51,991 bases of DNA from assembly GCA_022562085.1 (NCBI GenBank), contig JADFPY010000002.1, positions 1 to 51,991 on the forward strand, written 5' to 3'. A program made the position numbers and the translations under genes. Positions 9,622-41,932 of the stretch are shown piece after piece. Within the stretch, counting starts at the first letter, position 1. Every line of letters starts with the position of its first letter. Under the pieces are notes generated by a model, which saw only the letters and a program-made list of their open reading frames with translations, made no database searches and was not told the DNA's origin. This stretch comes from Candidatus Zhuqueibacterota bacterium (GTDB lineage: Bacteria; Zhuqueibacterota; Zhuqueibacteria; Oceanimicrobiales; Oceanimicrobiaceae).

Positions 9622-12600
9622 TCAAAACAGGAATTTCTTCTTCTTGGCCGCTTGCTTCTGTGCCCCATATTTTTCGAGCACAAATTCTTGAAATAAGCTT
9701 GAGAAAATCAGCGACTGTTCATCTTGCACTTTTATGTACCCTGCCTTGACTAACCTGCTTAATATATACTCTTGCGACTTATGAAGTCTCTTGCCGTGGG
9801 ACAGGCACAAGAAGACTTCGCGCTGATCCTCGTCGCAAATATCCCAAATCTGCTGGAAGTGTACTTTGGCTTCGTCCAGGAACTCCTCGCGCACTTTATC
9901 AAGAATGGCCTCATCGATATTCTCACCGGAGGAGACGTATTCGAAAAGGATTGCGCAGGCGATTTGAATAAAAAATGGATAGTATCCGGCAACATCGATA
10001 ATAAAAGGAGCATAAGGTTTGAGAGGGCCACCGCAAGCGCTGGAAGGCGTACTAATCAACTCTATCGCCTCGTTTTCACGGAGCTGCGACAAAGTGATAT
10101 TGGAAAATATATTAAAAAAAGGCGAGTAAGAAATTTCACTGCTGTGGCAGAGATCCTGAAGATTTTTCCCTGACGAGACAATATAGGCGATGTTGAAATT
10201 GTTGGCGATCGATCTGAAAAAGGAGAAGAATTCCATGTCGAAATTTGGATTTTTGGTCACAACCTCAAATTCATCAAATATCATGATGATCTTTAAACCA
10301 TTTTGATCCAGGGCGGAAACGAGTTTCTTGAAATCCTGGTAGTCCGGTTGCAAATTGGAATCCAAATCCAAATCCTTTTTGCATTCGCGCAATAATGACT
10401 TAATGATAAATTCGAGAAATTGCGGGATATCGATTTGTTGTTTTTCCTGAAAATCTATAAAGATGAATAAGTAGTCGTTGACATGTCGCAGGTATTTCGT
10501 GCGGTTCTCCGGATGATAAATGTAATGGAGGAGAGATGATTTTCCAATTCGACGTTCTCCAACGATAGAAATCGACTGCGGCCGTGATGCTCCGATGCGC
10601 GCACAAATCTTCTTGACTTCGCTCTTGCGGCCGTAGAAGTCATCAATATTCCGAATCATGACGCGATTCAAATAGGGATTCTTGAGCTCTATCGTAGGCG
10701 ATTCTTCCAGGGCTCGTTCTGACACGCCTGGCTGAGACGTATCGGGAGTGTCCTGCGCAACCAGCTCTGTCTTACGTTCTGGAAAATCAAGCGCAGCTAA
10801 ATCGGCGACTTCGTTTGAATCGATTTCTTCTTTGCCCTGCCTTTCATCCCTAATCAAAGAGGATTCCGGGAAAGCCTTAATCTGCTGATAACGGCCCGGC
10901 ATCAGTCTGGCCTTGACACTTTTAAGCAAGCTGTCAAGATCGTATCCTACCACATACAAACAAGGCACGAGAACCAGAGTAAGTGGCGTTGAAAAAAGCA
11001 GGCCGTAACCCAACGCTAGCGCCATGGGAGACATGTAAGCATCCTGGCCTCCTAGCCCGTACACCAGGGGGACAAGGCCGGCAACTGTCGTGAGTGTTGT
11101 CATGATGATAGCGCGCAACCGGTCTGCGGTCCCTTCTGCCACGATCTTCCTGATTCCCTCGTTAGGTTTGTCCTTACGGAGTTGATTTACATGACTAACC
11201 AGCACGAGCGAATCGTTGACTACAACACCTACAAGGCCGACCGCACCCAATATGCCGAGAAAACTGAACGGTTCACCATGCAGGACAAATGCCCAAATAA
11301 CCCCGATAATGCCAAATGGCACCGCCACGAGAACCATGAACGGCATGGTCATGGAGTTGAAGAGAAGAACCAGCAAGAAATAGATGCCGATGATTGCAAT
11401 CCCGAATGTGAGCAAAAGGCCCGCAAGCGATTCCTGCTGTTCCTGCGCCTTGCCGCCGATGACTAGCTGCAGGCCCGGGTATTCCTTGTCCAAATTGAAA
11501 TGAGCCAGGACTTGTTGAGCAGCCGCGAGAGCGGTGGTTTCCTGTTGAAAAAGGTCCGCTGAAACAGTTATTGAACGTTCACCTTCATAATGCCGAAACT
11601 CTGCCGGGCCGGGCACGATATTAAGGCGGGTTACGTCCTTCAACGGAATCAGTCGTCCCTGGCGATTCGGGACGGTAAGTCTCCTTAAATATGACAAACT
11701 CTTCCGCGCCTTTTCCTGCAGAACGACCCGAAAATTAACGTCTTCTTCGCCGTAGCGAATACTTGTGACAACCTCTCCGTCATAGGCAATACGCACGGTT
11801 TGCGCAATGTCAGCGGCCGTTAAACCCAGCCGGGCCAGTTTGTCGTAGTTGGGTTTAATATCCACCTGCTTCTTGCCTACCTTATCATCGCGCTGGACAT
11901 CCTTGACGCCTGGTATGGTCTGAAGAAACGCGTAAACGGAATCCGCCAAGGTTTTTCGCAAAGCATCGTCCGAGCCAACGATGCGTACTACAACAGGCTT
12001 GCCAACGCGGGGTCCGCCCACCTCTATGCGGAAGGAGGTCGTGCGAAAAACATCCAGGTCGTCGATCTGGCGCCGCAGACCCTCTACGATCTCATCCGCT
12101 GTCCTCTCCCGCTCGGAGAAGGGGGTGAGGTTAACGTAAATAAATGCGTAGTTTTCGCTTACAATATCTACCGAATCGCCATAGCGACCGAGACGCGTTA
12201 CGAATGAAGCCAGATCGACTTTAGGTAAATCGGACAGCATCTCTTCAACTTTTTTCGTCTGGTCAGAAGTAGCTTGTAAGGATGTGCCGGTCGGCAACTC
12301 CAAAGTAATAAAAAATTGCTCCGCACCTTTGGTTGGGAAAAGAACAAAATGCATCACATTTTTAGCATACCATAGTGAGCCGGCGAGGAGCACAATGGCG
12401 AGTAAAACGAGAAGGTATCGCCATCGCAGCAAATGAAACGAGATGCGCTCGAACGAATTCCGCACCGGGTCAAACCAGCTCCGGCCGGTTGAACGCCCTG
12501 ATTTGGCTTTGAGTTTTTGCATTCCTGGAACCAAATGAGCCGGCAGCGCAATCACTATTTCTCCGAGCGAGATGAGTAACGCCAGACTAACCGTCAAGGG

Positions 12601-13986
12601 AATGACGTAGATGAATTTTCCCATCAACCCCGGCATAAAAAACATGGGCGCAAAAGCCAGGAAAGTGGTCAGAATCGTCGTTAGCACCGGGCGAAAAACT
12701 TCATTAATTCCATTAACAGCTGCGTCCAGAGGAGAGTCCCCCAGCTCCCAGCGACGATAAATATTCTCAGATATGATAATGCCATCGTCCACGATAATAC
12801 CAAGGACAAGAATCATGGCGCTCAAGGTTATCCCATCCAGATAGGTGCCGAAAACGGGCAGCAGAAAGATGACGCCGAGCATAGCTACCGGGATGCCAAG
12901 CGCCACCCAAAAAGCAGTGCGAAGGTCTAGGAAAAACGCCAGCATCAGCACAACTAAGAGCAGACCGATAATGCCGTTTGAAAGCACAATATCGAACTTG
13001 CTGCGCACATATTTTGACACATCGCTGGAGTATAAGATTTCGACCTCATCGAGCAGATTTTTTCTTTCGACCTCAATAAGATCTTTGATGGCGTCAACGG
13101 TTCGGATAACGTCGGCCCCCTCACTCTTAAGCACCACAAATGAAATGACAGCTTTTCTGTCCATCCGTGACATAATTCTCTCTTCTTCAAAGTCGTCCTT
13201 GATAATGGCCAGATCTTTGACTTTTACGTTTGGGCCTTCAAATGTGCTGCGAACGATGACATTTCCCACTTCCAGTGGGTTGCTGAATTCGCTCAGCATG
13301 ACGATATTTTTTTCATCGGTGTACGATTCTATCGAGCCGCCGCGAGCGCTCATCGTTCGTGCCCGGATGGCCATAATGATTTCGCGCAATGGCAGCTGAT
13401 AGCGATTCATCAAAGCAGGAGAAACTTCAATTTTGATTTCGCGAGCGCGATAACCATATCGCTTTACCCGCGCCACACCCTTGATGTTTTTCAGTTTTTT
13501 CTCAAAAAGACGCGCGTGCTCGCGGAGTGCTGGATAAGGAAGGTTGCCGGAGAGTCCGACCTCAATGATGGGAAAAATGGAAGTCTTTAGCTCGGTGATC
13601 AACGGTGCTTCGGTTACTTCCGGGGGCAAGTCTGACACGCGGGCAACCGCCTCTCGGATCTCATCTACAACCTCATTCAGATCCTGCACATTGGGCTCGA
13701 TAGTGACTTCCATGAATGAGCTATTCTCCATCGAGATCGATGTCACTTCCTTGACATCGGTGACACTCTTTAACTCTTCCTCAATCTTGTTGGTAACGTT
13801 GAGCTCCACTTCCTCAGCTGAGGCCCCGGGATAATAGGTGGTAATAAACAGTCGGCCGAAATCGACGGCGGGGTATTGATCACGGTTAATGAACGTTAAG
13901 GTTGCCAGTCCAAAGATGATGACGCCGCCGGTAAAAAGATTCGCCACAATATGTCGTTCAATGAAGAATCTAAAGAGGGATTCCAT
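9622..13986 (-). CDS. Efflux RND permease (AcrB/HAE-type, ~1030 aa) fused through an acidic linker to a C-terminal Arch_ATPase/STAND-like P-loop ATPase module (352 aa)
   Basis: Uninterrupted 1454-aa ORF. The N-terminus MESLFRFFIERHIVANLF..., the two large loop regions and the TM bundles are typical of RND permeases, ending near LVPCLYVVGYDL. The linker is ...DERQGKEEIDSNEVADLAALDFPERK... The module follows: NPYLNRVMIRNIDDFYGRKSEV, Walker A GERRIGKS (nt 10537-10560), Walker B IIMIFDEFE, and a winged-helix-like C-terminus. Confidence 0.85.
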   Translation of the reverse strand: MESLFRFFIERHIVANLFTGGVIIFGLATLTFINRDQYPAVDFGRLFITTYYPGASAEEVELNVTNKIEEELKSVTDVKEVTSISMENSSFMEVTIEPNVQDLNEVVDEIREAVARVSDLPPEVTEAPLITELKTSIFPIIEVGLSGNLPYPALREHARLFEKKLKNIKGVARVKRYGYRAREIKIEVSPALMNRYQLPLREIIMAIRARTMSARGGSIESYTDEKNIVMLSEFSNPLEVGNVIVRSTFEGPNVKVKDLAIIKDDFEEERIMSRMDRKAVISFVVLKSEGADVIRTVDAIKDLIEVERKNLLDEVEILYSSDVSKYVRSKFDIVLSNGIIGLLLVVLMLAFFLDLRTAFWVALGIPVAMLGVIFLLPVFGTYLDGITLSAMILVLGIIVDDGIIISENIYRRWELGDSPLDAAVNGINEVFRPVLTTILTTFLAFAPMFFMPGLMGKFIYVIPLTVSLALLISLGEIVIALPAHLVPGMQKLKAKSGRSTGRSWFDPVRNSFERISFHLLRWRYLLVLLAIVLLAGSLWYAKNVMHFVLFPTKGAEQFFITLELPTGTSLQATSDQTKKVEEMLSDLPKVDLASFVTRLGRYGDSVDIVSENYAFIYVNLTPFSERERTADEIVEGLRRQIDDLDVFRTTSFRIEVGGPRVGKPVVVRIVGSDDALRKTLADSVYAFLQTIPGVKDVQRDDKVGKKQVDIKPNYDKLARLGLTAADIAQTVRIAYDGEVVTSIRYGEEDVNFRVVLQEKARKSLSYLRRLTVPNRQGRLIPLKDVTRLNIVPGPAEFRHYEGERSITVSADLFQQETTALAAAQQVLAHFNLDKEYPGLQLVIGGKAQEQQESLAGLLLTFGIAIIGIYFLLVLLFNSMTMPFMVLVAVPFGIIGVIWAFVLHGEPFSFLGILGAVGLVGVVVNDSLVLVSHVNQLRKDKPNEGIRKIVAEGTADRLRAIIMTTLTTVAGLVPLVYGLGGQDAYMSPMALALGYGLLFSTPLTLVLVPCLYVVGYDLDSLLKSVKARLMPGRYQQIKAFPESSLIRDERQGKEEIDSNEVADLAALDFPERKTELVAQDTPDTSQPGVSERALEESPTIELKNPYLNRVMIRNIDDFYGRKSEVKKICARIGASRPQSISIVGERRIGKSSLLHYIYHPENRTKYLRHVNDYLFIFIDFQEKQQIDIPQFLEFIIKSLLRECKKDLDLDSNLQPDYQDFKKLVSALDQNGLKIIMIFDEFEVVTKNPNFDMEFFSFFRSIANNFNIAYIVSSGKNLQDLCHSSEISYSPFFNIFSNITLSQLRENEAIELISTPSSACGGPLKPYAPFIIDVAGYYPFFIQIACAILFEYVSSGENIDEAILDKVREEFLDEAKVHFQQIWDICDEDQREVFLCLSHGKRLHKSQEYILSRLVKAGYIKVQDEQSLIFSSLFQEFVLEKYGAQKQAAKKKKFLF
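9625..10680 (-). other. ATPase module copy 1 (domain of the RND fusion protein)
   Basis: 352 aa from NPYLNRV to KKKKFLF. It aligns collinearly with the 352-aa module at 24928-25983, at roughly 60 percent identity counted by eye. Confidence 0.8.
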
Positions 13987-16364: not shown

Positions 16365-16585
16365 ATGAGTAGATTGAAAAAGTTATCACATACGCTTTAC
16401 AAATGCAAGTTTTATATGGCATTTTGTCCGAAATATATCGTTCTCGGAAACTTCAAAGGTGATTATCACTGAATATGCGCGTCAGCTATTGTGTTGCTCG
16501 TAGTTAGTATCCCACAGCCTTGACCAGGAGGTCAATCATGGAATCCAACAATATGAGTGCTCATGTCTTCCTATTTATGCGGTAG
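16365..16585 (+). pseudogene. Decayed N-terminal remnant of an IS200/IS605-family Y1 (HUH) transposase tnpA
   Basis: Three frame-shifted pieces. MSRLKKLSHTLYKCKFYMAFCPKY (16365-16472) resembles the IS200 TnpA N-terminus (..LaHT.w.CKYHIVF.PKY..). TEYARQLLC lies at 16468-16503. IMESNNMSAHVFLFMR (to 16585) resembles ..E...aDHIHML.. Both His-containing motifs are degraded. An 8-bp-stem hairpin TTCTGCCA-AAAAA-TGGCAGAA at 16291-16311 lies upstream. The remnant is truncated where the 3' end of the next gene begins. Confidence 0.45.
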
Positions 16586-18220
16586 TCCGATCCCATATCT
16601 TCCTGGCGAGATAACGTGATGCGGATCGAGGGCCTGCTTGATTTTGTTTGCCAGCTTTTGAAATTCCGGCGTGCAGTTTAATATTTCGTCATAGTAAGCT
16701 ACGGTGGTCCGGTATTGCTGATAACCTTGCTCAAGAAGAACTGTGGCCAGCTCCTTGCGTAGAGCTTGCGCTCGTTTCGCTTCATCTGCGTTGGTTTTGT
16801 CGTAGAAGATAGCTTGCAACGTTAATGCGCAACGCGGGTTAATCATGACAAATGTACAGGCAAAATCGAATCCATGTTTGTGAAAGATCTCAGTGCACAA
16901 CTCCTTCAATTTATCTATTTCACTTCCAGTCAATGGCACGATGCAGGAAAACCAGACGAACCCCGTACCATCGCGCGCCGGGTCTAAATTCTCCGTGGGG
17001 GCAGGTGTCTGGGATTTGAAGTAAGCAATTCTCAAAACATATTCTCCCGGGATACCTTTGAAAATGGGATAAACTTGCGGAAGTCCCTCAATTTTTTCGA
17101 GGGAAGCACTGGTCACTGACCTGAGAATGGAGTTGATCATCGGGAAATCCTTATACCTTCTCCAGAAACGGGTTATTTTCCCGACAATCTTCAGCTTGGC
17201 ATCATCCAAAAGATCGAACCGGCCGTACGGCTTCAGATGCTGTTTGAGAAGCTTAAGCTGTAACCGAACTTGCTTGCGGGTTCCATAGATGCCACCTGAG
17301 AGTAACCATGGCGATATGAGGTACTTCTCCCTGACCGAGGCCATTTCTTTTGCAGAGAGGTAGGTTTGCCCATCTGCCAACCGGTCGTAGGGATAGGGCT
17401 GCATGGCGGACAGAAAAAGTACATCATTTGTGAGGTGAACATTGCTTAGAAGGATTCGATTTAAGGACAAGCGGCGCAGTGTGTCTATCACTGCCGGCAG
17501 ATATTCCTCTTTTTCCAAATCAAGCAAAAACATGACGAACTTTTCGGGCTCGGGCATTAGCCAAATCCCGGCTTTGGTTACAATACCAAAGTTGGCCTGG
17601 GCGAACAGGCCCTCAATATACGGCCCGGTGCCCCATTTGTACACATTCGCAGTTCGCGAGTTTTCGGGTCCCCCTCCCGTGCGCAAAATCTCGCCTGACG
17701 GAAGAACGACTTCCATGCCGCACAGTTGACCAAAGTGATCCCAGTAAGGTGTATAACCAACGCCACGTTCCATGGCATTGCCAACGACACTTCCTTCGGG
17801 AGTTGCATCTGTGCAGTCGGTCCAGAGTTTGATATTGTTATGATCCAGATGCTCCCGGAGTTTCTTCTGGGTAACTCCAGGCTCGATTACGGCATAGGCC
17901 AATTCCTCGTTCACCTCGACGACACGATTCATGCGATCCAGCATCAAGATCACAGCCCCGGCCTCGAGCCCCATACTTGCACCATAACTCCAGTTCTTGC
18001 CTTTGCTGAATGGCCATATTGGGAATTTGTATCGGTTGGCCAGTTTCACAATCTGTGCAACTTCTTCGGTAGTGGCCGGGAAAACTACCGCCGCCGGTAT
18101 TTTTAACCATTCGCTTGTATCTGTAGAATACTTCTTGACATCTTCCGCGTCCGTAAGAACATGGCTGGTGCCGACAATTTGTCTGATCCCTTCTAAAGCT
18201 TTCTCTTCAACTCTCGCCAT
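16571..18220 (-). CDS. FAD-binding oxidase of the PCMH/VAO family (vanillyl-alcohol oxidase / 4-alkylphenol oxidase-like)
   Basis: N-terminal FAD_binding_4-type region PAAVVFPATTEEVAQIVKLANRYKFPIWPFSKGKNWSYG. 549 aa, the size of VAO/PCMH flavoproteins. Confidence 0.8.
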   Translation of the reverse strand: MARVEEKALEGIRQIVGTSHVLTDAEDVKKYSTDTSEWLKIPAAVVFPATTEEVAQIVKLANRYKFPIWPFSKGKNWSYGASMGLEAGAVILMLDRMNRVVEVNEELAYAVIEPGVTQKKLREHLDHNNIKLWTDCTDATPEGSVVGNAMERGVGYTPYWDHFGQLCGMEVVLPSGEILRTGGGPENSRTANVYKWGTGPYIEGLFAQANFGIVTKAGIWLMPEPEKFVMFLLDLEKEEYLPAVIDTLRRLSLNRILLSNVHLTNDVLFLSAMQPYPYDRLADGQTYLSAKEMASVREKYLISPWLLSGGIYGTRKQVRLQLKLLKQHLKPYGRFDLLDDAKLKIVGKITRFWRRYKDFPMINSILRSVTSASLEKIEGLPQVYPIFKGIPGEYVLRIAYFKSQTPAPTENLDPARDGTGFVWFSCIVPLTGSEIDKLKELCTEIFHKHGFDFACTFVMINPRCALTLQAIFYDKTNADEAKRAQALRKELATVLLEQGYQQYRTTVAYYDEILNCTPEFQKLANKIKQALDPHHVISPGRYGIGLPHK

Positions 18221-18292
18221 TTAGCTTCTCCAAAGTGAATATCCGCCCTTGTCTTCGTAGATAGTTCCATGTGGCAGGCTCGCTGAATTTAA

Positions 18293-19900
18293 CTACGAGA
18301 CCTGGCCATCCGGAAACAGAGACTGCCGGAGTTCCTGGGTAGCGCTGCTGGCAGTGTTGGCGTTGAAGACCGCAAAAACATAGCGATCTGGCCTAAGAAC
18401 CACAAGATTCACCTGGAATCTATCGAACCAGGCTGCGAGCTTGCTCTCCAGGTCAGCCACGACTGCAAGGCCATCTTCAGGCCCTGGCTGTTCCGTTGCC
18501 CCGATGATCCGGACAAACCTGGTCGACAGGTTCTCCCAAAAAGCTTGCGACTCTGTAGTTATCACGCAGCGAGGATCAACCTCCAGGCCGAGAACAGCGA
18601 AGCCGTGGCCCAGCACCTCATCCAGCAGAACGCTCTCCTCATCTGTCGTGCGCACTTTTGGTTGAATGAATAGTTTGCCCCGGGCCGCACGTGATTGTTG
18701 CTGGCGGTCGCTAGCAACCAAACCACCACGAAAGCTTGCCTCTGGCCTGAATTCTCCACTTCTTACCTTGCGGCCAATGGTAGGTACAAACTTGAGAAGA
18801 CGGAAGAATAGGTTGCGAATCCAGGCAACAGTTCGGCTCTCGGTTTGTAAAATACGACCGAAATTAACTGACATTCTGGTCATTCTCTGAACGTGAGGTT
18901 TTCGTTCGATTTGGTAGGACTGCAGGATCGCGGGGTCGGCATGACCACGAAGAACGAGCGCCATCTTCCAACTCAAATTACTAACATCGCGAATCCCTGA
19001 GTTCATGCCGGTGCCACCAAACGGTGGCGTGAGGTGTGCCGCATCGCCGGCCAGGAAAACCCGCCCAGCAGTCCACTTGTCTGCGATACGGGCATGGTAG
19101 ATGTACACGGACTTGCGGATCAGCTCCACATCTCCTAAATCCACCCAGGGAGCTAACAGCGCTCTGACCGTTTCGAGCTGTTCCATTTGCTCCTGGGTTT
19201 CCCCAGTCTTGAGCATGAACTGCCAGCGATGATGGTTGAACGCCATCGGATAGGTAACAACCGGACGCTTCGGATCACAGATGAATTGGAGATTTGACGG
19301 ATACTTAGATGGATCATCAATCTTGACATCGACAACAAGCCATTGCTGGAAGGTCTTTCCAATCAACTCCGCACCTATCTGATGACGCACAATGCTACGA
19401 CCTCCATCACATCCCAGCAGGTACTTTGCTCTGACCTCGTAAACTTTATCGGTACCATGGTCTCGCACGACGACGGTAACTCCTTCGCCAGAGTCAGAAA
19501 ATGACTCTGCTTCGTTTCCCAGTCGAACTTCAACACAGGGAAATCGGTCAACGCCTTCGCGCAGCGTTTTTTCGATAAATGGCTGATAGAGGAGTATGAA
19601 CACATGGAACCCGTAGCCGAAATCGGTGCTACGTACTTCCAGGAATGGTTTGCCAACACCATCCAGAAACTGTAAAAGATTCTGGGGCAGCAGTTTGGGC
19701 ATGAGCAGATCTGACAAATGGATCGACTGCCAAATGCGCATCGATTCATCATCGCAAGTTCCTGCACGCGGCAACCGGTAAACGGCATCATCACGTTCGA
19801 GCACCAGGGTGCGGATGCCAAGTTGGCCAAACAAGTTTGCAGCCGTCGTGCCAACGGGGCCATACCCCGCGAGGATAATGTCATAGTCCGGGGTCGTCAT
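18293..19900 (-). CDS. FAD-dependent aromatic-ring monooxygenase (PheA/TfdB/MhpA-like)
   Basis: ORF 18293..19945. Preferred ATG at 19900 with GGGAGGA 8 nt upstream. GxGxxG motif DIILAGYGPVGTTAANL. DG and GD motifs GCDGGRSIVR and LAGDAAHLTPPFGGTGMNSGIRD. Confidence 0.8.
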   Translation of the reverse strand: MTTPDYDIILAGYGPVGTTAANLFGQLGIRTLVLERDDAVYRLPRAGTCDDESMRIWQSIHLSDLLMPKLLPQNLLQFLDGVGKPFLEVRSTDFGYGFHVFILLYQPFIEKTLREGVDRFPCVEVRLGNEAESFSDSGEGVTVVVRDHGTDKVYEVRAKYLLGCDGGRSIVRHQIGAELIGKTFQQWLVVDVKIDDPSKYPSNLQFICDPKRPVVTYPMAFNHHRWQFMLKTGETQEQMEQLETVRALLAPWVDLGDVELIRKSVYIYHARIADKWTAGRVFLAGDAAHLTPPFGGTGMNSGIRDVSNLSWKMALVLRGHADPAILQSYQIERKPHVQRMTRMSVNFGRILQTESRTVAWIRNLFFRLLKFVPTIGRKVRSGEFRPEASFRGGLVASDRQQQSRAARGKLFIQPKVRTTDEESVLLDEVLGHGFAVLGLEVDPRCVITTESQAFWENLSTRFVRIIGATEQPGPEDGLAVVADLESKLAAWFDRFQVNLVVLRPDRYVFAVFNANTASSATQELRQSLFPDGQVS

Positions 19901-19922
19901 ACTGAATGTCCTCCCTTCTTCA

Positions 19923-21494
19923 TTATGAATCTTTGTAACTTTCAACCACGGCTTCCGCCGTCTGCTCCGAGATAGCGGAAATGGTCATGCAGGGGTGAAA
20001 CCCCAGTGATGAGGGAATCATGGACCCATCAGCGACGTATAAGCCGGGGTAGCCATGTACTTCTCCCGCGGAGGAAACAACACCCTCTTCGGGTGAATCA
20101 GAGAGATTGCATCCGCCGAGTGGGTGCACGGTGAGAATTCGTTTAAAGATGGTCCAGGTGACCAGTGGGGCAAATGTTCCGCCATAAATATCGCTTACTT
20201 CCTGCATACTTGCAATCATCTTCTCCACCAACTCGTGGTTCTCACGAGCATAATTCCACGTAATATCGAGATTTCCCTTTTTCAACCGGATCTGACCGTT
20301 GGCATTATCCCGTCCAATCGCAAAAAGGTTGGTCATTCTGGCAGGATCACCAGCGTTGGGCATAGACGCTTTACCCGGTTTACTCAACAGTCCTTTCTTA
20401 AATGCCCAAATGAGAATGGACGCCATCTTATGCCACAGTATCGGCGACAGAAAACGCAGCCAACCGTGGTTGGGCTGGCCCATAGCAGCCAAAACTTTCA
20501 TCACCGGTTGACTGAAGCTAGGCGCGGCCATGGTGAACTGAGGCGCCTCGTCAAAATAGCGCATCACGGAAGTGACATCCGGCCCTTTCCATGGTTCGAG
20601 GTCGATCTCACTATTCTGAATGGACCCAAGAAAATCACCATTTCCTGAGAAACCGCTGCCCAGTTTTGCACTAAGCTTGGGCAGGGTTCTGAATACATCA
20701 CGACTCTGGAGTAGAATCTTGTTGGTTCCTAGAGTACCCGCTGAGAGAACCGTACGTGAGGCATCAACACTGCCCGCTTTATCGGTTCCCACGTCTTTAT
20801 AATGCACGCGATAGCCCGATTGCAAAGGCTCAATATGCATGACGTTGATGCCGGTTTGGATGCGAGCGCCCAACTGCTCGGCCTTCGCAAGATAGGTTAG
20901 ATCCAGCGAGTTTTTTGCTCCGTACTGACATCCAAATTCGCACTCCGCTACCATGCGGCAAGCCTCCCGGTCTGGCCCGCCAGGCTCTTGCCAACTCACT
21001 GCCTGGTCTGGATCGAAAACATCTCGATTTAGCTTCTTAGCTGCTTGTCGAAAGATGTCGCGTTTCGGCAATGAGACGTCTGCCGGCACCGGTGCGATGC
21101 CCAGCATATCTGCGACCTTATCGTAGTATGGATCAAGACTCGCGCGGTTAATTAAGCGCGGCCATTTGGGATCTTCAAACACCACAGCGTCCGGTCGGAT
21201 ATGGATATTGGCGTAAATCAAAGATCCACCGCCAACGCCGCTTGCAACAATGGTTCCTATGCCGGAGAAAAAGTCCAATTCATACAAGCCCCGAAAATCC
21301 GATTGTTTCGGGTAACGCCAAAACAAGCTCTTGACATCGGTGACGTCTCTGGGGAATTCGCCGGGTTTGTAGCGTTTGCCGCGCTCCAAAACCAGCACGG
21401 ATTTGCCGGCCTCCGCCAAACGTAAAGCATTTATGGAACCACCGAATCCAGAACCGATGACGACTGCATCGTACTGATGTGGAGAATTATTCAT
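19923..21494 (-). CDS. GMC-family oxidoreductase (cholesterol-oxidase-like)
   Basis: DAVVIGSGFGGSINALRLAEAGKSVLVLERG at the N-terminus. C-terminal VHPLGGC and GLYVADGSMIPSSLGFHPCMTISAISE. The ATG overlaps the upstream stop (ATGA at 21491-21494). Confidence 0.85.
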   Translation of the reverse strand: MNNSPHQYDAVVIGSGFGGSINALRLAEAGKSVLVLERGKRYKPGEFPRDVTDVKSLFWRYPKQSDFRGLYELDFFSGIGTIVASGVGGGSLIYANIHIRPDAVVFEDPKWPRLINRASLDPYYDKVADMLGIAPVPADVSLPKRDIFRQAAKKLNRDVFDPDQAVSWQEPGGPDREACRMVAECEFGCQYGAKNSLDLTYLAKAEQLGARIQTGINVMHIEPLQSGYRVHYKDVGTDKAGSVDASRTVLSAGTLGTNKILLQSRDVFRTLPKLSAKLGSGFSGNGDFLGSIQNSEIDLEPWKGPDVTSVMRYFDEAPQFTMAAPSFSQPVMKVLAAMGQPNHGWLRFLSPILWHKMASILIWAFKKGLLSKPGKASMPNAGDPARMTNLFAIGRDNANGQIRLKKGNLDITWNYARENHELVEKMIASMQEVSDIYGGTFAPLVTWTIFKRILTVHPLGGCNLSDSPEEGVVSSAGEVHGYPGLYVADGSMIPSSLGFHPCMTISAISEQTAEAVVESYKDS

Positions 21495-24913: not shown

Positions 24914-24924
24914 GATATTGATCC

Positions 24925-28662: not shown

Positions 28663-29972
28663 TAGAAACCGAGCTGAAAACCCACCGTTGCAATAAAGTC
28701 TGATCTCAGCCCACCAGCATTGAGAGGAACTATTATATTGCCAATCAAGATAAACTCTGGCTTGGGGTTAAACTTTAGACCCAGTGAAGCATTCAGGTTA
28801 TGGTCATGAGAAAAACTGGGAATATTCGTCAACATCACTTCCCGCACGGCATTCCCGGCCGGTCGCTCTAAGGTGACGGACTTTCCGAATCGCAGCTCTT
28901 CAATTTCATCGCCGATTTCGAATTCGCCCAGGAAATCTACAGATAATGTCAGCCATGTTGCCAACTTTTGATCATAACCGACAAAAAGTTCGATTTCATC
29001 GGGATCGAGATCGTTGTTTCGGCGGTCGTAGGTCAAATTCAGGTGGGGTCCAAAATTCCCAATAATGGCCGAGGCGATCAGCATCGCCCGAAAACTTGAG
29101 TGGCCAGTGCCCAGGAAGTTTTCTTCATCGCCCGTTGCGGCACGATACTCAAGCAAGCCCGCGAGACCAAGCGTCTTCCCGCGAAGAAAGCTATACTTGG
29201 CACGAAGAGCGATATCACCGATGCCCGCATCATCATCATTTAGAGAAGTTGGCCTCAGCGATAGGATGGGGTCCGACGGGGTACCGCCGGGAAAACTATG
29301 GTTTGCCGTATCGTTGCTAACAAAGGTGAAGCTATTTATTCGAGCGATGGGATCAGCGTTTACACTGACATTGACGAACGGCACAGCAATGCTGATATCA
29401 AAATGATTCGTGATGCCCGCCGTCAGGTTGAACGAAACAATGGTCGCGTTCAAATCCAAATTCATGAAAAGATCAATGGTATCGAATTCATTGTCAGAGT
29501 CGCCAAGGCCGGGCGCTCCCACATCCTGGTGGGTAAAGGTAAAGCGAATGTCTTCAGTCTTGAGACCCCGGAGTTTAGAGAAGTTGAGAACACTTAGGTT
29601 GAGCCCCAGACTGAACCGGCCCTTGCCCAAGGTTTGCGCTCGTTCAGAAAAGATTGGGCCCATGCTCGTAGTCGTACTCACGGGCTGACCGGTACTAAAA
29701 TCGAAGGTCAAACCAGCTTCAGTAGAACCGAGTGGAAAGGAGGCGATATTTGCAGCAATGAAGCTGGCAAATGAGTTTATGGTCGCCTCGCTCAACGCCA
29801 CGTTGTCCGCCCTAAAATGGGTCCCGTGTTCCCCGGGGCCGGCGAGTTCGATCTCCAGAACTTCACCGAAGATATTACCTATTTTATCCCGTAAACTTTG
29901 GCCAACAACGGTCTGTGACGGAGCCAGCGCTACAATAAGCCACACCGCCACAACCAATCGATTTGAGTGCAT
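28662..29972 (-). CDS. Putative outer-membrane beta-barrel protein (MetA-pathway/phenol-degradation-like transporter family is a guess)
   Basis: Signal peptide MHSNRLVVAVWLIVALAPSQTVVGQ with AGGAGG upstream. Alternating hydrophobic beta-strand pattern throughout. GIGDIALRAKY motif. C-terminal ...TVGFQLGF ends in Phe, as in OMP sorting signals. Confidence 0.6.
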   Translation of the reverse strand: MHSNRLVVAVWLIVALAPSQTVVGQSLRDKIGNIFGEVLEIELAGPGEHGTHFRADNVALSEATINSFASFIAANIASFPLGSTEAGLTFDFSTGQPVSTTTSMGPIFSERAQTLGKGRFSLGLNLSVLNFSKLRGLKTEDIRFTFTHQDVGAPGLGDSDNEFDTIDLFMNLDLNATIVSFNLTAGITNHFDISIAVPFVNVSVNADPIARINSFTFVSNDTANHSFPGGTPSDPILSLRPTSLNDDDAGIGDIALRAKYSFLRGKTLGLAGLLEYRAATGDEENFLGTGHSSFRAMLIASAIIGNFGPHLNLTYDRRNNDLDPDEIELFVGYDQKLATWLTLSVDFLGEFEIGDEIEELRFGKSVTLERPAGNAVREVMLTNIPSFSHDHNLNASLGLKFNPKPEFILIGNIIVPLNAGGLRSDFIATVGFQLGF

Positions 29973-29995: not shown

Positions 29996-32446
29996 TTACC
30001 CACCTCGGCTGATGTTAGAGATAAGCCAAGTAGTGCTTGCTTCAGCGAGTTGAATCTGCCATGTAAAGCGATTGTCAGAATTGACGAAGCCACTATACTT
30101 CAGGCGAACATCTACAGAAGTCGTAACGCCATTTTCGCGAAAGGTAAATTTCTCGATCGACAATTGGGCTTCAATATTATCCACGGTTTTGAACACCTGA
30201 GACCATTGTGTTTCCATCTTTTTAGTGAAGTTCACATAGAGACTTTTTAACGACTGAATATCCTTATTTTCCAGAGCTTGTCCATATTGGGCAATTACAG
30301 ATCGGATATTTTTTATTTGGCCTTTGCGCACGACGATACTGGCTTCATAAAATTGTTGAGCTCGTCGATAGCTCTGGACAGCCGCGGTAGCGTCCCCACT
30401 TTGCAATTGCGACTCGCCGTTCCTTTCCGCCTTTGCGGCCTGCTGATAGTCATCCAAAAATACATACTGTTCGTCAAGCTGGCCCTTTATTTTCTGGAGA
30501 CTCTTCCGAAGTGCCTCGGCTTGTGTGGCAAAGTTGGCGGAAGCCGTACGTGCTTCTGCGGCGGCAGATAAGTATAGTTGCTGGGCGTGCTGAAAATCGG
30601 TACTCGCCGTCTGAAACCGCTTTTTAGAAAAGGAGCGTCTCGCTGCTCTCTCTTTTTGCCTGGCGGCGTTAAAAGACTTTTCCGCAAGCGCGGCCGCGGA
30701 AACCTTTTCTGCTGCCGTTTTGGCACTGCTCATCCTATTCCGCCAGCTTATTGCCTGGCTTTGAGCAGCGGCCGTTCGACTCCTGGCATCCTCTCCCGCT
30801 TTAACACGGGCCTGCTCGATTGCTTCCTCTTTTTCAGCGCGATCGACCGATTCTTCGAATTTTTCTTTGGCGCGCTGGAACAAATCTATTGCACTGGTAT
30901 AATCAAGCTGATCAAAAACTGTAAGCCCTTGTTGTTTCAACTGCAAACCGGAGTCAAAGGATGCTTCGGCATACTTGGAAGCATTTTTCTGAACGGCTTG
31001 CTCCTCGGCGATCTCCATGGCTTCTCGCGCTTTCCCTGCCGACTCCAGATCGTTCAATTCAGCCGGAGGTTCTGCGGTCTTGATTTCGGACGGTGGTATG
31101 ATAGTTTGAAACCGCTCCTTTAGCTCCGGCAGAAACCGCGTTATCAGGATACCGAACAAAGTGGCAACCACGACGACTACCGGCCATTTTCTCCGTCTCC
31201 TTTTCGTCGGGCCACGACTTGTCTGGCTTGGAATACCTTGGTCGGTACTGACTTCCACTGGCGCCCTTTTCTCTTCGGTTAGGTCAGACCCGACATCTTT
31301 GATAACGCTCCAGATCGAGTGATCACGTTTTATCCACCCTCTAAAGAGATCCATCTTGAAACTGTAGCCGTCGTCAGTCTTATTGACAAACTGACTGTGG
31401 AACAGACTTTCCAGAGTCGTGTTGATGGCTTGTACACTTGCATTAATACCGAGCTCGCGTTTTTTGCATCGTTTTTCGATCTGCTTGGCTTCTACGGAGG
31501 TATTCTCATCTTTCAGCAATTCCGCCATAAGAGAAAGAACGAGTTTCTTATTATTGGACAGGCTGTTCCAGAAGTAGATCATCTGAGGGAGAGGGTTTTC
31601 CATGATTTCATCAGCGATCACTTTCAAATCTTGCTTGTCGACGTGATTTTTTTCCTTGTCATTCAAATGATCAACAATGTTCTGACAAACCACCTGGGTA
31701 TAAAATGGCTGTCCGGCAGTGAGCCGGCGGATGGCGTCAAGGGCATCATCTTCATAGCTCACATAGTCCGGAACTGGCTCCGTAATCAATCGCAGCGTAT
31801 CTCGCTCAGAGAGAAAACTGACATTACGATAGAGGGACTTGGGAAGCATGATCGACCAGTATTTGCTTTCCCGGTCATCTAACCGCGTCGAGCCGGTCAA
31901 AATATAAGAGACTTTGCGTTCGCTCTCCAGGATGCCGGCCAAGAAAGGGACCAAATTTGCGCTTAGACTGCCTTCATCGATTTTCGATTCGATCAACTCG
32001 TACTCATCAATCAGAAAGAGTATCTTCTTATCCGGATTGAGCGTTTGCACATCATCGAGTAGCTTGTCGAATACTTTGTAGGGATTTTCCTTTTGGGACA
32101 GGAAATCATAGTCGTTAAGATCGATCTTGTCATCCTGCAGACATTTGACGGTTTCCTTGGCGACTTTTTCGAAAAACTCCGCGTCATTTTTTAGACCGGC
32201 CATGGTTTGCATGTCCACCAGAATGGGAAGAAAGCTCGTCCCCAATTCTCCATTTAAGATTTGAAACAAAATAGAAGTTTTTCCGCTTCGCCGTTCCCCA
32301 CAGAATACGATGACAAAACTCTGATCCCCCGCCTCGAGTTTGCGTTTTACAAAATCAAAGTCGTCAGCTCGGCCATAGAACATCTCTCTGGATTTAATAG
32401 GGTTGCCGACAATGTACGGATTGGGAATGGGCTTGAATTCAGACAT
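29996..32446 (-). CDS. Arch_ATPase/STAND-like ATPase (module copy 4) + single TM helix + three helical Ala/Gln-rich repeats + C-terminal NTF2/SnoaL-like domain
   Basis: ORF 29996..32578; preferred ATG at 32446 (MSEFKPIPNPYIVGNPI...). FYGRADDF, GERRSGKT (nt 32276-32299), Walker B ILFLIDEYE, AGQPFYTQ. TM helix RRRRKWPVVVVVATLFGILITRFL (about nt 31130-31190). Repeats have the form A..A...F..A...(Y/F)..A...F..A. The C-terminus IAQYGQALENKDIQSLKSLY...WLISNI is NTF2-like. Confidence 0.75.
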   Translation of the reverse strand: MSEFKPIPNPYIVGNPIKSREMFYGRADDFDFVKRKLEAGDQSFVIVFCGERRSGKTSILFQILNGELGTSFLPILVDMQTMAGLKNDAEFFEKVAKETVKCLQDDKIDLNDYDFLSQKENPYKVFDKLLDDVQTLNPDKKILFLIDEYELIESKIDEGSLSANLVPFLAGILESERKVSYILTGSTRLDDRESKYWSIMLPKSLYRNVSFLSERDTLRLITEPVPDYVSYEDDALDAIRRLTAGQPFYTQVVCQNIVDHLNDKEKNHVDKQDLKVIADEIMENPLPQMIYFWNSLSNNKKLVLSLMAELLKDENTSVEAKQIEKRCKKRELGINASVQAINTTLESLFHSQFVNKTDDGYSFKMDLFRGWIKRDHSIWSVIKDVGSDLTEEKRAPVEVSTDQGIPSQTSRGPTKRRRRKWPVVVVVATLFGILITRFLPELKERFQTIIPPSEIKTAEPPAELNDLESAGKAREAMEIAEEQAVQKNASKYAEASFDSGLQLKQQGLTVFDQLDYTSAIDLFQRAKEKFEESVDRAEKEEAIEQARVKAGEDARSRTAAAQSQAISWRNRMSSAKTAAEKVSAAALAEKSFNAARQKERAARRSFSKKRFQTASTDFQHAQQLYLSAAAEARTASANFATQAEALRKSLQKIKGQLDEQYVFLDDYQQAAKAERNGESQLQSGDATAAVQSYRRAQQFYEASIVVRKGQIKNIRSVIAQYGQALENKDIQSLKSLYVNFTKKMETQWSQVFKTVDNIEAQLSIEKFTFRENGVTTSVDVRLKYSGFVNSDNRFTWQIQLAEASTTWLISNISRGG

Positions 32447-34181: not shown

Positions 34182-34197
34182 AACACAAACTCACTAC

Positions 34198-36918: not shown

Positions 36919-36999
36919 TTTGAAGAAATGCTTTTGTTAAAAAATAGTAGTCCTCAATGCTGGTTTCAAGATACTGGATTTTTGTTGAAACCTCAAACA

Positions 37000-37977: not shown

Positions 37978-38045
37978 AATTATTGTCCTTTTTGCAGCTA
38001 AATAACAAAAAATTGAGATTCAAAACAAAGGCTCTTAACTAAAAA

Positions 38046-39257: not shown

Positions 39258-39463
39258 TCTAATCTGTCATAATAGTTTCACAAATTTTGCGACTCTGTTT
39301 TACAAATTCACACAAGTTTTTTTGAACCGCTGAAGTGTTCACTCAGGAGCATCTCCTAATAAAAACTTGTTTGTCAATTTCATTATTCATTTTCATTTTT
39401 GACTTTTCTTTTTATATTTAAGTATAAAGTTTGGTATTTTTAACTTCAACCAAGAGGGATTCC

Positions 39464-39940
39464 ATGCTTGATAGACTTTATTTTTTCATACTGATTTTTT
39501 CAGTGATATTTTTTCAGAATAGCGGACACCGGGCATTTGCCCAAACACCAGAGAATTGTGAGCAAGAGCTTCGGCAAGCGACAGACCTATTTCGTTCGGC
39601 AAAATACGACTCAGCACTTTCTTTGCTCAATCTTTGTTTGCTGCAAAGGCAGCCGGTGCAGTTAGAAAAAGCCGAAGCTTATAAACTTTTGGGCAAAGTT
39701 AAAGTTGCTTTGGACGACGCCACTGGTGCAAAAGCGGCTTTCCTTGAAATGTTGTCATTGCAGCCCTTCATGGAGCTTGACTCAAAGCAAGAAACACCTG
39801 AGACCGTCAAGATTTTCAATGAAGTAAGGATTGAATTTTTGACTGCCAACCCAACGACGAAAGGCTCAAAAAACTGGCCCTGGATCGCCGTTTCAGGAGC
39901 TGTGGTTTTTACAGTTGCAGCCTTGCTCTTTTTAAAATAG
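39464..39940 (+). CDS. Hypothetical exported TPR-like protein with C-terminal membrane anchor
   Basis: ORF 39431..39940; preferred ATG at 39464. Signal-like LYFFILIFSVIFFQNSGHRAFAQ. TPR-like AEAYKLLGKVKVALDDATGAKAAFLEMLSLQP. C-terminal helix WIAVSGAVVFTVAALLFL. Confidence 0.5.
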   Translation: MLDRLYFFILIFSVIFFQNSGHRAFAQTPENCEQELRQATDLFRSAKYDSALSLLNLCLLQRQPVQLEKAEAYKLLGKVKVALDDATGAKAAFLEMLSLQPFMELDSKQETPETVKIFNEVRIEFLTANPTTKGSKNWPWIAVSGAVVFTVAALLFLK

Positions 39941-40006: not shown

Positions 40007-41932
40007 ATGACCGCAAAAAATCCCTTCATAGCCGGAAACTGGGTGCGGGGGAAAAACTTTTTCGGCCGGCAAAAACTCATCAGCGAAATTCTGGAAGGCC
40101 GCCGGCATTATCTCTGGGTTGCGGGAACACGCAGAGTTGGCAAGACCTCTTTGTTGAAGCAACTCGAGTACTTGATCCTGCAAGGTGAGTCTTCGGACAA
40201 ATATGTCTCTCTTTTTTGGGATATGCAGGGGAGTCGTGACCTGAACGGCTTAAAAGAGTCATTGTTGGAAAGCGTTGAGGACGCGGAGCCGCAATTTTCT
40301 CAGCTTGGCGTCGATGTCAGCCGGCTTGAGGAACAAGATTTATTTGGTATTCTGAGAACGCTGAAGCGGGCAGTCAAGGATGCTAATTCAAACTTAATGC
40401 TTCTCTGCGACGAAGTTGAGGAGCTCATCAATATCGAAAAAAACAATCCGGAGATTCTGCCAAAATTACGACGGTTCTTTCAGCGTGGTGACAATATTTA
40501 TACAGTCCTTACTTCAACCAGGCGCTTGGGGATTCTTGAACAAACATCCATTCCGGACACGTCTCCCTTTTTGCACGGGTTCGTGCCGCCAATTTATTTG
40601 CCTCGTTTTGAACATGAAGATTCAGCTGCCTTAATCGGTCAGTGGAATTTTTCCGGGGACATTGTCGAAGAAATCATCGAAAAAACCGCTCATCACCCCT
40701 ATCTGATTCAACTGCTTTGTACTCGCTTGATCGATTCAAACGATATCAGGAAAGTGATTGCCGAAATCAGCCAGGACGATATGATAAGCCACTTTTTCTC
40801 AGTGGATTTTCGAACACTGGAAAGCAGCGAAAAGGAAATACTCCTGTGTTTGCTTCAAAATAAAAAATTAACTTTAGGCAAGCTGCAAAGTCTTTGCGGC
40901 GAGTCGTCCGAAAAGCTTATTACGCAACTTTACCAACTCATGCAGCTCGGGTTTATAAAACAAACAGACCGCTATTACAGCATTTCAAATTACTTCTTTG
41001 GGCAGTGGCTTGAAAGAGAAAAGCAAAAACTTTATTCAGATTCAACTTTGAAACGAGCTGAAACACTTCCTGATTCTGATCCATCACTCACACCTGCCGC
41101 GGGATTGCCGGAAATCGGAGATAGTTTGGCTCAGCATAAAATTTTAGGAAAGCTGGGTTCCGGAGGCATGGGCGTCGTCTTTAAAGGCCGCGATCTGAAA
41201 CTCAACCGGCTCGTGGCCCTAAAAATTCTGTCACCGGATTTAATGAATGACTTAGAATTAAGGCAGAGATTCATTATTGAAGCTCAGGCGGCGTCGGCGA
41301 TGAACCATCAAAACATTTGTACAATTTATCAAACCGGTGAGGATGCGGGACTCAGCTTTATTTCGATGGAATATATCGACGGGCATAATTTGCGGGACTG
41401 GAGTCAAATCCATCGGGACATTCCGGGCAAATTGAATATCGCAATTCAAACCGGTAAAGGCTTTATTCACGCTCATTCTAAAGGTATCGTCCACCGGGAT
41501 ATTAAACCGGAGAATATCATGGTTACAAAAGAGGGGGTCGCAAAAATCACCGACTTCGGATTGGCCAAGACTCTCACGCCGGTCGACCCACACTTGACCA
41601 AATCCGGGACCACCCTGGGAACGCTGAGCTACATGTCGCCTGAACAAGCCAGCGGTTTAGACACGGATCATCGCGCGGACATCTTTTCTTTTGGAATCGT
41701 GCTTTATGAGTTATTTTCCGGGCAGCTGCCATTCTCAGGAAAATTTGAGCTCAGTGTTTTGTATTCCATTTTAAACGAAGATCCCGTGCCGATTTGTAAA
41801 GTCAATTCCGAGCTGCCTGAGGCGTTGGATAAAATTATATGGAAAGCGTTGCAGAAGGACAAAGCGAAACGGTATGAATCGATGAGTGAGTTGGTGGGTG
41901 AGTTGGAGCTGCTTTTGGAGAAAGGCCGCTGA
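40007..41932 (+). CDS. Arch_ATPase/STAND-like ATPase (module copy 5) fused to a C-terminal Hanks-type Ser/Thr protein kinase
   Basis: NPFIAGNWVRGKNFFGRQKL, GTRRVGKT (nt 40124-40147), Walker B LMLLCDEVE, AHHPYLIQ, and the winged-helix-like LYQLMQLGFIKQ. Kinase from about nt 41135: LGSGGMGVVFKG, VALK, HRDIKPENIM, DFGLAK, YMSPEQ. Confidence 0.85.
   Translation: MTAKNPFIAGNWVRGKNFFGRQKLISEILEGRRHYLWVAGTRRVGKTSLLKQLEYLILQGESSDKYVSLFWDMQGSRDLNGLKESLLESVEDAEPQFSQLGVDVSRLEEQDLFGILRTLKRAVKDANSNLMLLCDEVEELINIEKNNPEILPKLRRFFQRGDNIYTVLTSTRRLGILEQTSIPDTSPFLHGFVPPIYLPRFEHEDSAALIGQWNFSGDIVEEIIEKTAHHPYLIQLLCTRLIDSNDIRKVIAEISQDDMISHFFSVDFRTLESSEKEILLCLLQNKKLTLGKLQSLCGESSEKLITQLYQLMQLGFIKQTDRYYSISNYFFGQWLEREKQKLYSDSTLKRAETLPDSDPSLTPAAGLPEIGDSLAQHKILGKLGSGGMGVVFKGRDLKLNRLVALKILSPDLMNDLELRQRFIIEAQAASAMNHQNICTIYQTGEDAGLSFISMEYIDGHNLRDWSQIHRDIPGKLNIAIQTGKGFIHAHSKGIVHRDIKPENIMVTKEGVAKITDFGLAKTLTPVDPHLTKSGTTLGTLSYMSPEQASGLDTDHRADIFSFGIVLYELFSGQLPFSGKFELSVLYSILNEDPVPICKVNSELPEALDKIIWKALQKDKAKRYESMSELVGELELLLEKGR

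Follow-up and report, generated by a model that had tools for sequence, protein, structure and literature searches.

A conserved cassette of nSTAND2-related NTPase genes in Calditrichota and its possible role in signalling across the cell envelope

The stretch of DNA analysed here (the window) comprises 51,991 nucleotides of contig JADFPY010000002.1 (assembly GCA_022562085.1) from a Candidatus Zhuqueibacterota bacterium. It carries five copies of one P-loop NTPase module, which were labelled A (fused to a resistance-nodulation-division (RND) permease), B (fused to a kinase and a cyclase), C (stand-alone), D (part of a transmembrane protein) and E (N-terminal to a kinase). An earlier note on this DNA had located the five copies and quoted their motifs; all of them lie where they had been placed, within intact open reading frames (ORFs), and the quoted motifs occur in the same order in each. 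The genes for D, an outer membrane protein (OMP), C and B lie tightly packed in a conserved cassette (Table 1).

In a five-way alignment, the five segments are collinear, homologous modules of approximately 340 residues. The motif NP[YF]..F[FY]GR is followed by the Walker A motif (GERRIGKS in two copies, GEPKIGKS, GERRSGKT and GTRRVGKT), by the Walker B motif of the general form hhhhD[DE] (DEFE in two copies, DDFH, DEYE and DEVE) and by a P[FY]xxQ..C region (AGYYPFFIQ in two copies, AGHFPFMLQ, AGQPFYTQ and AHHPYLIQ); an L..L...[GN][YF] end closes the alignment. The similarity among the five modules far exceeds chance. Pairwise BLASTP comparisons covering about 300-360 residues yielded 64% identity for A and B (E 8e-173) and approximately 36% for C and either A or B (E 1e-83). 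D and E are 18-26% identical to every other copy in the same type of comparison (E 5e-6 to 5e-16). The five copies are best grouped into three tiers of relatedness and not into one uniform family. Separate family alignments were built for each of the three module types and compared profile to profile by means of hhalign. The three subfamilies were aligned over 321-323 columns with probabilities of 98.5-99.7%, the comparison of the E-type with the Pfam family nSTAND2 giving 323 columns and 99.7%. This end-to-end agreement argues for three subfamilies of one module. All five copies retain GK[ST] of Walker A and D[DE] of Walker B, and neither motif varies in any of the three family alignments, which suggests that each of the copies is probably competent for NTP binding.

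The modules A, B and C scored 156.8, 166.7 and 123.7 bits against nSTAND2 (PF20702), whose gathering threshold is 24 bits, and are assigned to this family. For D and E no nSTAND2 match was obtained at E<=0.01; they are related to it only at the profile-profile level and are classified by sequence as two sister subfamilies. Module D matched AAA_14 above threshold (33.5 bits) and ATPase_2 below it, and module E gave matches to ATPase_2, AAA_22 and nSTAND1, all of them sub-threshold. The AAA_16 scores of the modules were likewise sub-threshold in Pfam, and an NCBIfam scan of the modules yielded nothing beyond a sub-threshold match of C to MalT. The earlier note had assigned the module to PF01637 (Arch_ATPase/ATPase_2; threshold 33.2 bits). 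This link is real but distant: the nearest structures are 2qen and 2fna, yet only C passes the threshold, and just so, with 34.1 bits, whereas A (24.0), B (21.2), D (24.2) and E (26.6) remain below it, and the best Pfam family is nSTAND2. The five segments do not belong to unrelated families, as nSTAND2 comprises A to C and hhalign joins the subfamilies of D and E to it. A relationship to TniB/TnsC-like transposition ATPases, indicated by sub-threshold Pfam and PADLOC matches, was considered and rejected: the scores are sub-threshold, the cassette contains no transposition genes, and the nearby insertion sequence (IS) is recent and unrelated.

The AlphaFold model of C (pLDDT 89.7, pTM 0.85) consists of a P-loop alpha/beta core, a helical lid and a winged helix. 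A Foldseek search of the PDB with this model gave 2qen (E 3e-12) and 2fna (E 9e-12) as the best matches, with TM-scores of about 0.55-0.6 across the whole module, followed by ORC/Cdc6 proteins; in a sequence-profile search of the PDB, 2fna was the sole match (6e-8). Residues 1-385 of D adopt the same fold in the AlphaFold2 (AF2) model, and the top Foldseek matches are ORC/Cdc6 proteins. The AAA+/winged-helix architecture that had been anticipated is thus seen in the models of both proteins. The nucleotide-binding oligomerisation domain (NOD) of STAND proteins is defined by a nucleotide-binding domain, a helical domain and a winged helix (PMC4381067). Judged from the models, the module, with its AAA+ core, helical lid and winged helix, corresponds to a bare NOD of the STAND type. 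The arm and the repeat sensor that usually follow a STAND NOD are absent: A, B and C stop 10-30 residues past the winged helix and E continues from the module into the kinase; only D has a further domain, which lies across the membrane. In public data, fusion partners of the module include kinases, class III cyclases, PP2C phosphatases, region 4 of extracytoplasmic function (ECF) sigma factors, and varied transmembrane or periplasmic domains. The proposal of a portable P-loop AAA+/STAND module with a winged helix, shuffled onto many signalling outputs, is therefore upheld by Pfam, by the models and by the public homologues. This idea of a portable switch is correct but not new, the module family being already contained in Pfam and named in the literature (PMC8195603). 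The further suggestion that one cue is relayed to several outputs is conjectural. Literature searches for nSTAND2 and related terms retrieved no experimental work on the family.

Relatives of the region were compared as numbered loci of approximately 20 kb each. The window region is 94-98% identical at the DNA level to two contigs of the metagenome-assembled genome (MAG) Caldithrix sp. N075bin58 (L001); the other relatives stem from Calditrichia and Calditrichota MAGs, and one locus (L010) was taken from a 4.73-Mb contig. In the window, the intergenic gaps between D, OMP, C and B are 23, -1 and 3 bp. The order D-OMP-(C)-B is the same in five Calditrichota lineages, namely the window, L002/L003, L004, L005 and L010. 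The genes flanking the cassette differ among these lineages (L002 and L003 are close relatives with shared flanks) and are housekeeping genes, not defence islands. B orthologues are present in L002-L005 and L010, and an OMP orthologue with 45-52% identity occupies the same position in L002, L003, L004, L005 and L010; the C gene is absent from L002/L003 and L005. A survey of gene neighbourhoods in related genomes, which the earlier note had called for, thus confirmed the recurrence of D-OMP-(C)-B but left A and E outside it. The assumption that all five modules are inherited as one set did not hold, as only D, OMP, C and B make up a conserved neighbourhood.

Table 1. Positions of the module-bearing genes, of the other cassette gene and of neighbouring features in the window.
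Feature	Position	Strand	Description
D	29996..32446	-	816 aa from ATG at 32446; receptor-type NTPase
OMP	28662..29972	-	436 aa; outer-membrane beta-barrel-like protein with signal peptide; second cassette gene; Phenol_MetA_deg 34.1 bits (threshold 22 bits)
C	27553..28662	-	369 aa; stand-alone nSTAND2 module; Walker A GEPKIGKS, Walker B DDFH
B	24925..27549	-	874 aa; Hanks-type Ser/Thr kinase 9-252, class III cyclase (predicted) 310-476, nSTAND2 ~516-874
A	9622..13986	-	1454 aa; RND permease 5-1013, acidic linker of ~100 aa, nSTAND2 module ~1096-1454 (nt 9622-10698)
E	40007..41932	+	641 aa; NTPase module of the third subfamily 1-345, Hanks-type kinase 379-624 (Pkinase 163 bits)
Small membrane protein	39431..39940	+	169 aa; 66 bp upstream of E; N-terminal hydrophobic segment, TPR-like helical part, C-terminal transmembrane helix
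Four flavoprotein oxidoreductase genes	16571..24928	-	Directly downstream of B; GMC + alpha/beta-hydrolase (1145 aa), GMC, FAD_binding_3 (aromatic-hydroxylase type), FAD_binding_4 (VAO type)
Phosphoesterase-like protein	14221-16038		605 aa; weak calcineurin-like phosphoesterase match; several C-terminal transmembrane helices
IS	7897-9577		Transposase 8035-9351 (DDE_Tnp_1, DUF772)
Outer-membrane efflux (OEP) gene	5700-7241		Downstream of A, separated from it by the IS
Fatty-acid-synthase-like cluster	33432-38993	-	Between D and E; acyltransferase, beta-ketoacyl synthase (KAS) I/II, two FabA/FabZ-like dehydratases, KAS III, enoyl-reductase-like short-chain dehydrogenase
Classical tripartite efflux operon	47644-51991		OEP, HlyD-type membrane-fusion protein, RND permease running off the window end

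The linkage extends beyond the cassette lineages. In all five D-type neighbourhoods with sufficient flanking sequence, a gene coding for an nSTAND2-effector fusion lies within two genes of the D-type gene. L010 contains the full cassette. L011/L012 contain a TonB-dependent-receptor-like barrel, a kinase-nSTAND2 protein and a D-type protein with PEGA domains. In L014 the D-type protein is followed by an nSTAND2-kinase. L015 comprises a kinase-nSTAND2 protein, a stand-alone ATPase, a D-type protein with an FGE domain and a TonB-dependent receptor. The receptor-like barrels of L011 and L015 stand in place of the OMP. In L022, which is from Spirochaetales, a D-PEGA protein, a 305-aa protein, a stand-alone nSTAND2 module and a cyclase-nSTAND2 protein are arranged in the same order as in the window.

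In D, the AAA+ core, the lid and the winged helix (residues 1-385) are followed by a disordered linker and a single transmembrane helix (421-438). The sequence KRRRRK precedes this helix and, according to hydropathy and the positive-inside rule, places the NTPase in the cytoplasm. About 375 residues would then lie outside the membrane; they form long helical hairpins and a C-terminal alpha+beta domain in the AF2 model (pLDDT 82.6). The earlier label "NTF2-like" for the C-terminus fits this model (helices and four long strands at 742-814), but in Pfam it has only sub-threshold backing: at E<=10 the matches were limited to NTF2_YvbJ, DUF4829 and TPR, all sub-threshold. When the complete D model served as the Foldseek query, the NTPase part determined the outcome, which does not bear on the C-terminal domain. 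The longest ORF (29996-32578, minus strand) begins at a TTG, 44 codons ahead of the ATG at 32446. As the alignment with homologues starts at residue 45-48, this ATG is the probable true start, and the mechanical ORF call probably over-extends D by window positions 32447-32578. For the D-type family, 905 homologue matches were obtained. The N-terminal ~385 residues are kept and are about 50% identical across phyla, with Walker A, Walker B and several Arg residues invariant in the family alignment. The outside domains vary and include helical/NTF2-like, PEGA, FGE-sulfatase, Reg_prop/Y_Y_Y, CarboxypepD_reg/Big and TPR domains. In L007, a Gemmatimonadales MAG, the order of a D-like protein (932-3646) is inverted: a signal peptide, periplasmic helical repeats and a transmembrane helix precede a C-terminal NTPase. 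The second long gene from there codes for a kinase-nSTAND2 protein without cyclase. As the NTPase of L007 is still cytoplasmic, the invariant feature of D-type proteins is an outside domain, a transmembrane helix and a cytoplasmic NTPase.

The OMP has a hydrophobic N-terminus. C and its orthologues in L004, L010 and L009 consistently differ from the B-type modules: the RR pair of Walker A is lacking, DDF[HN] replaces DEFE in Walker B, and there is no counterpart of the Arg found after the sensor-1 strand of B-types (SSGRNLQ). These C-types form a clade of their own in the module tree. B combines a Pkinase domain (183 bits), a Guanylate_cyc domain (PF00211; 60.1 bits with a threshold of 21.9 bits) and the nSTAND2 module. 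The cyclase part aligns to the adenylyl cyclase Ma1120 (4wp8, 7e-21), and FSD with the metal-binding Asp, K..GD and N..AAR are conserved. From its score, the metal Asp and the transition-state Asn and Arg, the segment 310-476 is predicted to be a class III nucleotidyl cyclase. In L005, a Calditrichia MAG, the B orthologue (7448-11059) has 1203 residues, with two kinase domains in front of the cyclase and the module; a separate 507-aa kinase, 47% identical to the kinase domain of E, is encoded just upstream of the D gene.

B ends in a basic-aromatic tail (KKKKFLFWNL; window positions 24925-24960). Similar tails occur in A (KKKKFLF; 9622-9650) and in all B-type modules (window, L002, L004 and L010), with KKKRRFWPF as a further variant. 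C-types end in a basic amphipathic helix (27553-27620 in the window). These sequences may serve in membrane targeting. In D, the transmembrane helix follows the module at the place equivalent to the tails of A, B and C. The module C-termini of A to D are thus plausibly close to the membrane.

The permease part of A matches ACR_tran with 585 bits over positions 2-1019 of the 1021 model positions, and its topology is coherent because RND C-termini are cytoplasmic. An intact fusion ORF is also present in Caldithrix sp. N075bin58, an independent MAG; there it has 1451 residues, is 97% identical and is preceded by the same upstream genes; given this intact ORF and the in-frame length difference of three residues, an assembly or frameshift artefact was rejected. 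An exhaustive HMMER search of 1.84 billion representative proteins with residues 800-1454 of A as query revealed no fusion of an RND permease with the module. All matches hit one half only, and those of the RND half end at ~1020-1070 residues. There was no RND fusion among the best 120 module homologues either, an exact-sequence look-up of A gave no record, and beyond A and its N075bin58 copy none of the searches made here yielded an RND pump with a cytoplasmic NTPase switch. The fusion appears to be confined to the lineage of the window. In a neighbour-joining tree, the A modules of the window and L001 are sister to the B module of the window, inside the Calditrichota B clade, and A carries the B-type signatures GERRIGKSS, DEFE and the KKKKFLF tail. 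Both observations indicate that the A module is a recent duplicate of the B module, which was probably grafted onto an RND pump in this lineage only.

No membrane-fusion gene adjoins A. The IS begins 45 bp downstream of the A stop codon and is missing from L001, where window position 9578 is joined directly to 7896. Its ends were set by this comparison, as an inverted-repeat search gave only a weak 22-nt pair. Between the oxidoreductase genes and A lies the gene for the phosphoesterase-like protein, which shows 98.7% conservation in the close relative.

By sequence, E is regarded as a separate, independent kinase fusion of a different subfamily. Most homologues are stand-alone proteins of ~346 residues; others carry ECF-sigma region 4 or a kinase as fusion partner. 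In both of the contexts that were inspected, E-type modules directly follow a larger AAA_16/ATPase_2 protein. These contexts are from other phyla (L017/L018, 5554-9041; L019, 1027-5234), and the larger protein has 808-864 residues with additional TPRs; in L019 ECF-sigma region 4 is joined to the E-type module, and a kinase comes next. The pairing of NTPase genes is thus a recurrent trait of the E subfamily as well. In the window, the place upstream of E is taken only by the gene for the small membrane protein, for which only sub-threshold TPR matches were found; this protein is a possible partner of E. The fatty-acid-synthase-like cluster between D and E may make a specialised lipid or polyene.

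The cassette can be interpreted as a STAND signalling pathway that is split over several proteins and spans the envelope: D would co-assemble with C and B and thereby switch on the kinase and the cyclase. We consider the chances that this interpretation is correct to be about even. Fold, motifs and gene linkage are those described above; the following steps we infer. D would be the receptor, whose variable periplasmic domain, probably fed by the outer membrane barrel, would sense an envelope or extracellular cue. Sensing would allow the cytoplasmic NTPase of D to bind NTP. The NOD of D would then nucleate a membrane-proximal, NTP-dependent hetero-oligomer with C as adaptor or cap and B as effector. 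STAND proteins act by inducer-dependent multimerisation (PMC4381067), and the same is assumed here for separate chains. Clustering of B would bring the kinase domains together for trans-autophosphorylation and would pair the cyclase domains into a catalytic dimer. Since the active sites of class III cyclases arise between the two partners of a dimer, clustering of B would activate the cyclase. The outputs would be a cyclic nucleotide, probably cyclic AMP (cAMP), and Ser/Thr phosphorylation. In the lineage of the window, A may tether the pump to this hub or subject it to the same nucleotide switch.

Several points weigh against this interpretation. The evidence for co-assembly consists of gene linkage and shared ancestry, and the role given to the OMP is a guess from its position alone. 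C is not essential, given that L002/L003 and L005 have the cassette without it. In L016, L020 and L021, nSTAND2 genes occur without a D-type neighbour, so that the module can work alone. The module tree was calculated by neighbour-joining and has no support values. A promoter and terminator scan of 13900-33500 was uninformative, as it gave no more sites than shuffled sequence. Finally, the nSTAND2 family was first described in predicted counter-invader systems (PMC8195603).

It is conceivable that there is no multi-protein system at all. The module would then be an expanded self-association or regulatory domain, each copy controlling its own chain by homo-oligomerisation, and the clustering would be due to tandem duplication and chance. 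The occurrence of the module alone or with many partners in the absence of D-type neighbours agrees with this explanation, as do the origin of A, clearly a local duplicate of the B module, and the unrelated contexts of the E subfamily. Moreover, the classical STAND proteins MalT and PknK are single-chain, homo-oligomerising switches (PMC4381067). Against it, the order D-OMP-(C)-B in five Calditrichota lineages with different flanks, which is found again in Spirochaetales, is hard to explain without functional coupling. Furthermore, sensor domains are missing from A, B, C and E, which must therefore receive their input from elsewhere, and C lacks any output domain. We therefore hold this explanation to be unlikely.

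Alternatively, the cassette could be an anti-invader system, functioning in conflict or abortive infection, in which the sensor NTPase detects a molecule of a phage or competitor and the kinase and the cyclase act as growth-arrest effector or second-messenger alarm. nSTAND2 was defined in a predicted counter-invader operon of two genes that both contain STAND modules (PMC8195603); STAND proteins with FGE/CLec sensors, some of them periplasmic, have been proposed as antigen sensors in conflict systems; and the cassette occurs, like mobile defence genes, in different genomic contexts of related genomes. The kinase domains also match the defence-kinase models PD-T4-6 and mad6 of PADLOC, but these matches reflect generic similarity of Hanks-type kinases. 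None of the NTPase modules matches an Avs or other defence STAND model: searches of PADLOC-DB gave only weak PDC-S27/TnsC matches for A (E ~1e-6 to 1e-7) and none for C and D. A toxic effector (nuclease, TIR, HEPN, GT4 or protease) is not present, and no partner has the eroded NTP motifs of the described two-gene system. The flanks are of the housekeeping type and contain no restriction, CRISPR or other defence genes. In addition, a variable sensor that is periplasmic and paired with an outer membrane barrel suits the sensing of the envelope better than that of cytoplasmic phage proteins. Taken together, a role in defence appears improbable.

The immediate neighbourhood of B deserves separate consideration. 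The first three oxidoreductase genes overlap B and one another by 4-23 bp, the overlap with B being 4 bp. This linkage is syntenic in the close relative (L001, L008) and is absent beside the cassette in L002-L005 and L010. The arrangement suggests that the cassette and the oxidoreductase genes are on one transcript in this lineage only, and the translational coupling of B to flavoprotein genes hints at a local link to the handling of hydrophobic or aromatic compounds. For NTF2-like folds, small hydrophobic molecules are common ligands. It is nevertheless very improbable that the cassette regulates an aromatic- or hydrophobic-compound regulon in this lineage, with the OMP importing or sensing a phenolic, the NTF2-like pocket of D binding it, B inducing the flavoprotein oxidases and the RND-nSTAND2 pump acting as exporter: the match of the OMP to Phenol_MetA_deg, the location of B, the four flavoenzyme genes, the metallophosphoesterase gene and A on one strand, and the conservation of this arrangement in the close relative are in its favour, but the oxidoreductases and the pump are unlinked to the cassette in every other genome examined, the Pfam assignments are generic, and gaps of 532 and 234 bp precede the metallophosphoesterase gene and A.

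The split STAND pathway shares features with several known systems. nSTAND2 was described by Kaur, Iyer, Burroughs and Aravind in 2021 in a two-gene operon with a novel STAND NTPase in both proteins (PMC8195603). As in that operon, related NTPase modules are encoded by adjacent genes (the gap between C and B is 3 bp and D lies two genes upstream), and a hetero-multimer, there proposed as the mode of action, is proposed for the cassette too. In the operon, which is predicted to counter invaders, one partner has eroded NTP motifs and the effectors are GT4 or HEPN domains (PMC8195603). In contrast, all partners in the window keep Walker A and B (GK[ST], D[DE]), the outputs are Pkinase, Guanylate_cyc and ACR_tran domains, D and E are below the PF20702 threshold, and the cassette includes a third, membrane-spanning NTPase and an outer membrane protein.

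The joining of a NOD to a kinase or a class III cyclase is also known from the classical bacterial STAND regulators, which include MalT, Mycobacterium tuberculosis PknK and the mycobacterial cyclase-ATPase-TPR-LuxR proteins, an architecture represented by Rv0386. STAND/AAA+ switches such as MalT, PknK, NLRs and Avs are known as single-chain sensors. In proteins of the MalT/PknK/Rv0386 type, the arm and a C-terminal TPR/SUPR sensor are part of the same polypeptide, whereas the NOD of the window is bare and its presumed sensor resides on another protein, which is anchored in the membrane. The sequence places the module in the nSTAND2/PF01637-like branch and not in the MalT/AAA_16 branch. For classical STAND regulators, multimerisation that depends on inducer and ATP is expected (PMC4381067). 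The archaeal PF01637 ATPases PAB2304 (2qen) and SSO1545 (2fna), as well as ORC/Cdc6, have the AAA+ core, the lid and the winged helix in the same order as the module. The identity between these ATPases and the module is 16-18%. The archaeal ATPases are stand-alone proteins and ORC/Cdc6 proteins bind DNA; neither group has signalling fusions or a membrane-anchored paralogue.

The layout of the cassette resembles that of FecA-FecR-FecI signalling, with an outer membrane barrel (TonB-dependent-receptor-like in some lineages), an inner membrane protein that crosses the membrane once and carries a periplasmic domain, and an output in the cytoplasm; ECF-sigma region 4 even occurs as a fusion partner of E-type modules. 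The analogy is one of layout alone, as there is no sequence relationship and NTPase oligomerisation would replace the proteolysis of an anti-sigma factor. Similar to Avs, bNACHT and the STAND-CLec proteins diversified by diversity-generating retroelements, a STAND-type NTPase is combined with variable sensors, which in some D-type relatives are FGE/CLec domains. In contrast to Avs and bNACHT, none of the modules fits a defence STAND model, signalling enzymes serve as effectors, the sensing domains lie in the periplasm and the context is of the housekeeping type.

Kinase-STAND fusions (PknK) and cyclase-ATPase fusions are known kinds of proteins. The cassette of a transmembrane receptor-type NTPase, an OMP and nSTAND2-effector fusions, in contrast, appears not to have been described, and the same seems to be true for the RND-NOD fusion and for bare NODs as the sole element common to the partners. 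As a whole, the proposition that this is a previously unrecognised type of transmembrane signalling, in which sensor D, adaptor C and effector B are separate chains linked only by NTP-driven hetero-oligomerisation of a bare NOD, with an outer membrane barrel as input and an RND pump wired into the hub in this lineage, is tentative and somewhat unlikely. The four-gene cassette offers clear readouts (cAMP and phosphorylation), which makes the hypothesis directly testable. If A is functional, it would suggest that an efflux pump is controlled at the protein level, depending on a nucleotide or a signal. If the proposition is true, a bare oligomerisation module spread over receptor, adaptor and kinase/cyclase effector would constitute a new principle of wiring the envelope to the cytoplasm, and split STAND pathways would join two-component systems, ECF/anti-sigma pairs and Hanks-kinase receptors. 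Thousands of metagenomic "AAA ATPase" fusions from Calditrichota, Poribacteria, Acidobacteriota, Spirochaetota and other groups would then gain a function as well.

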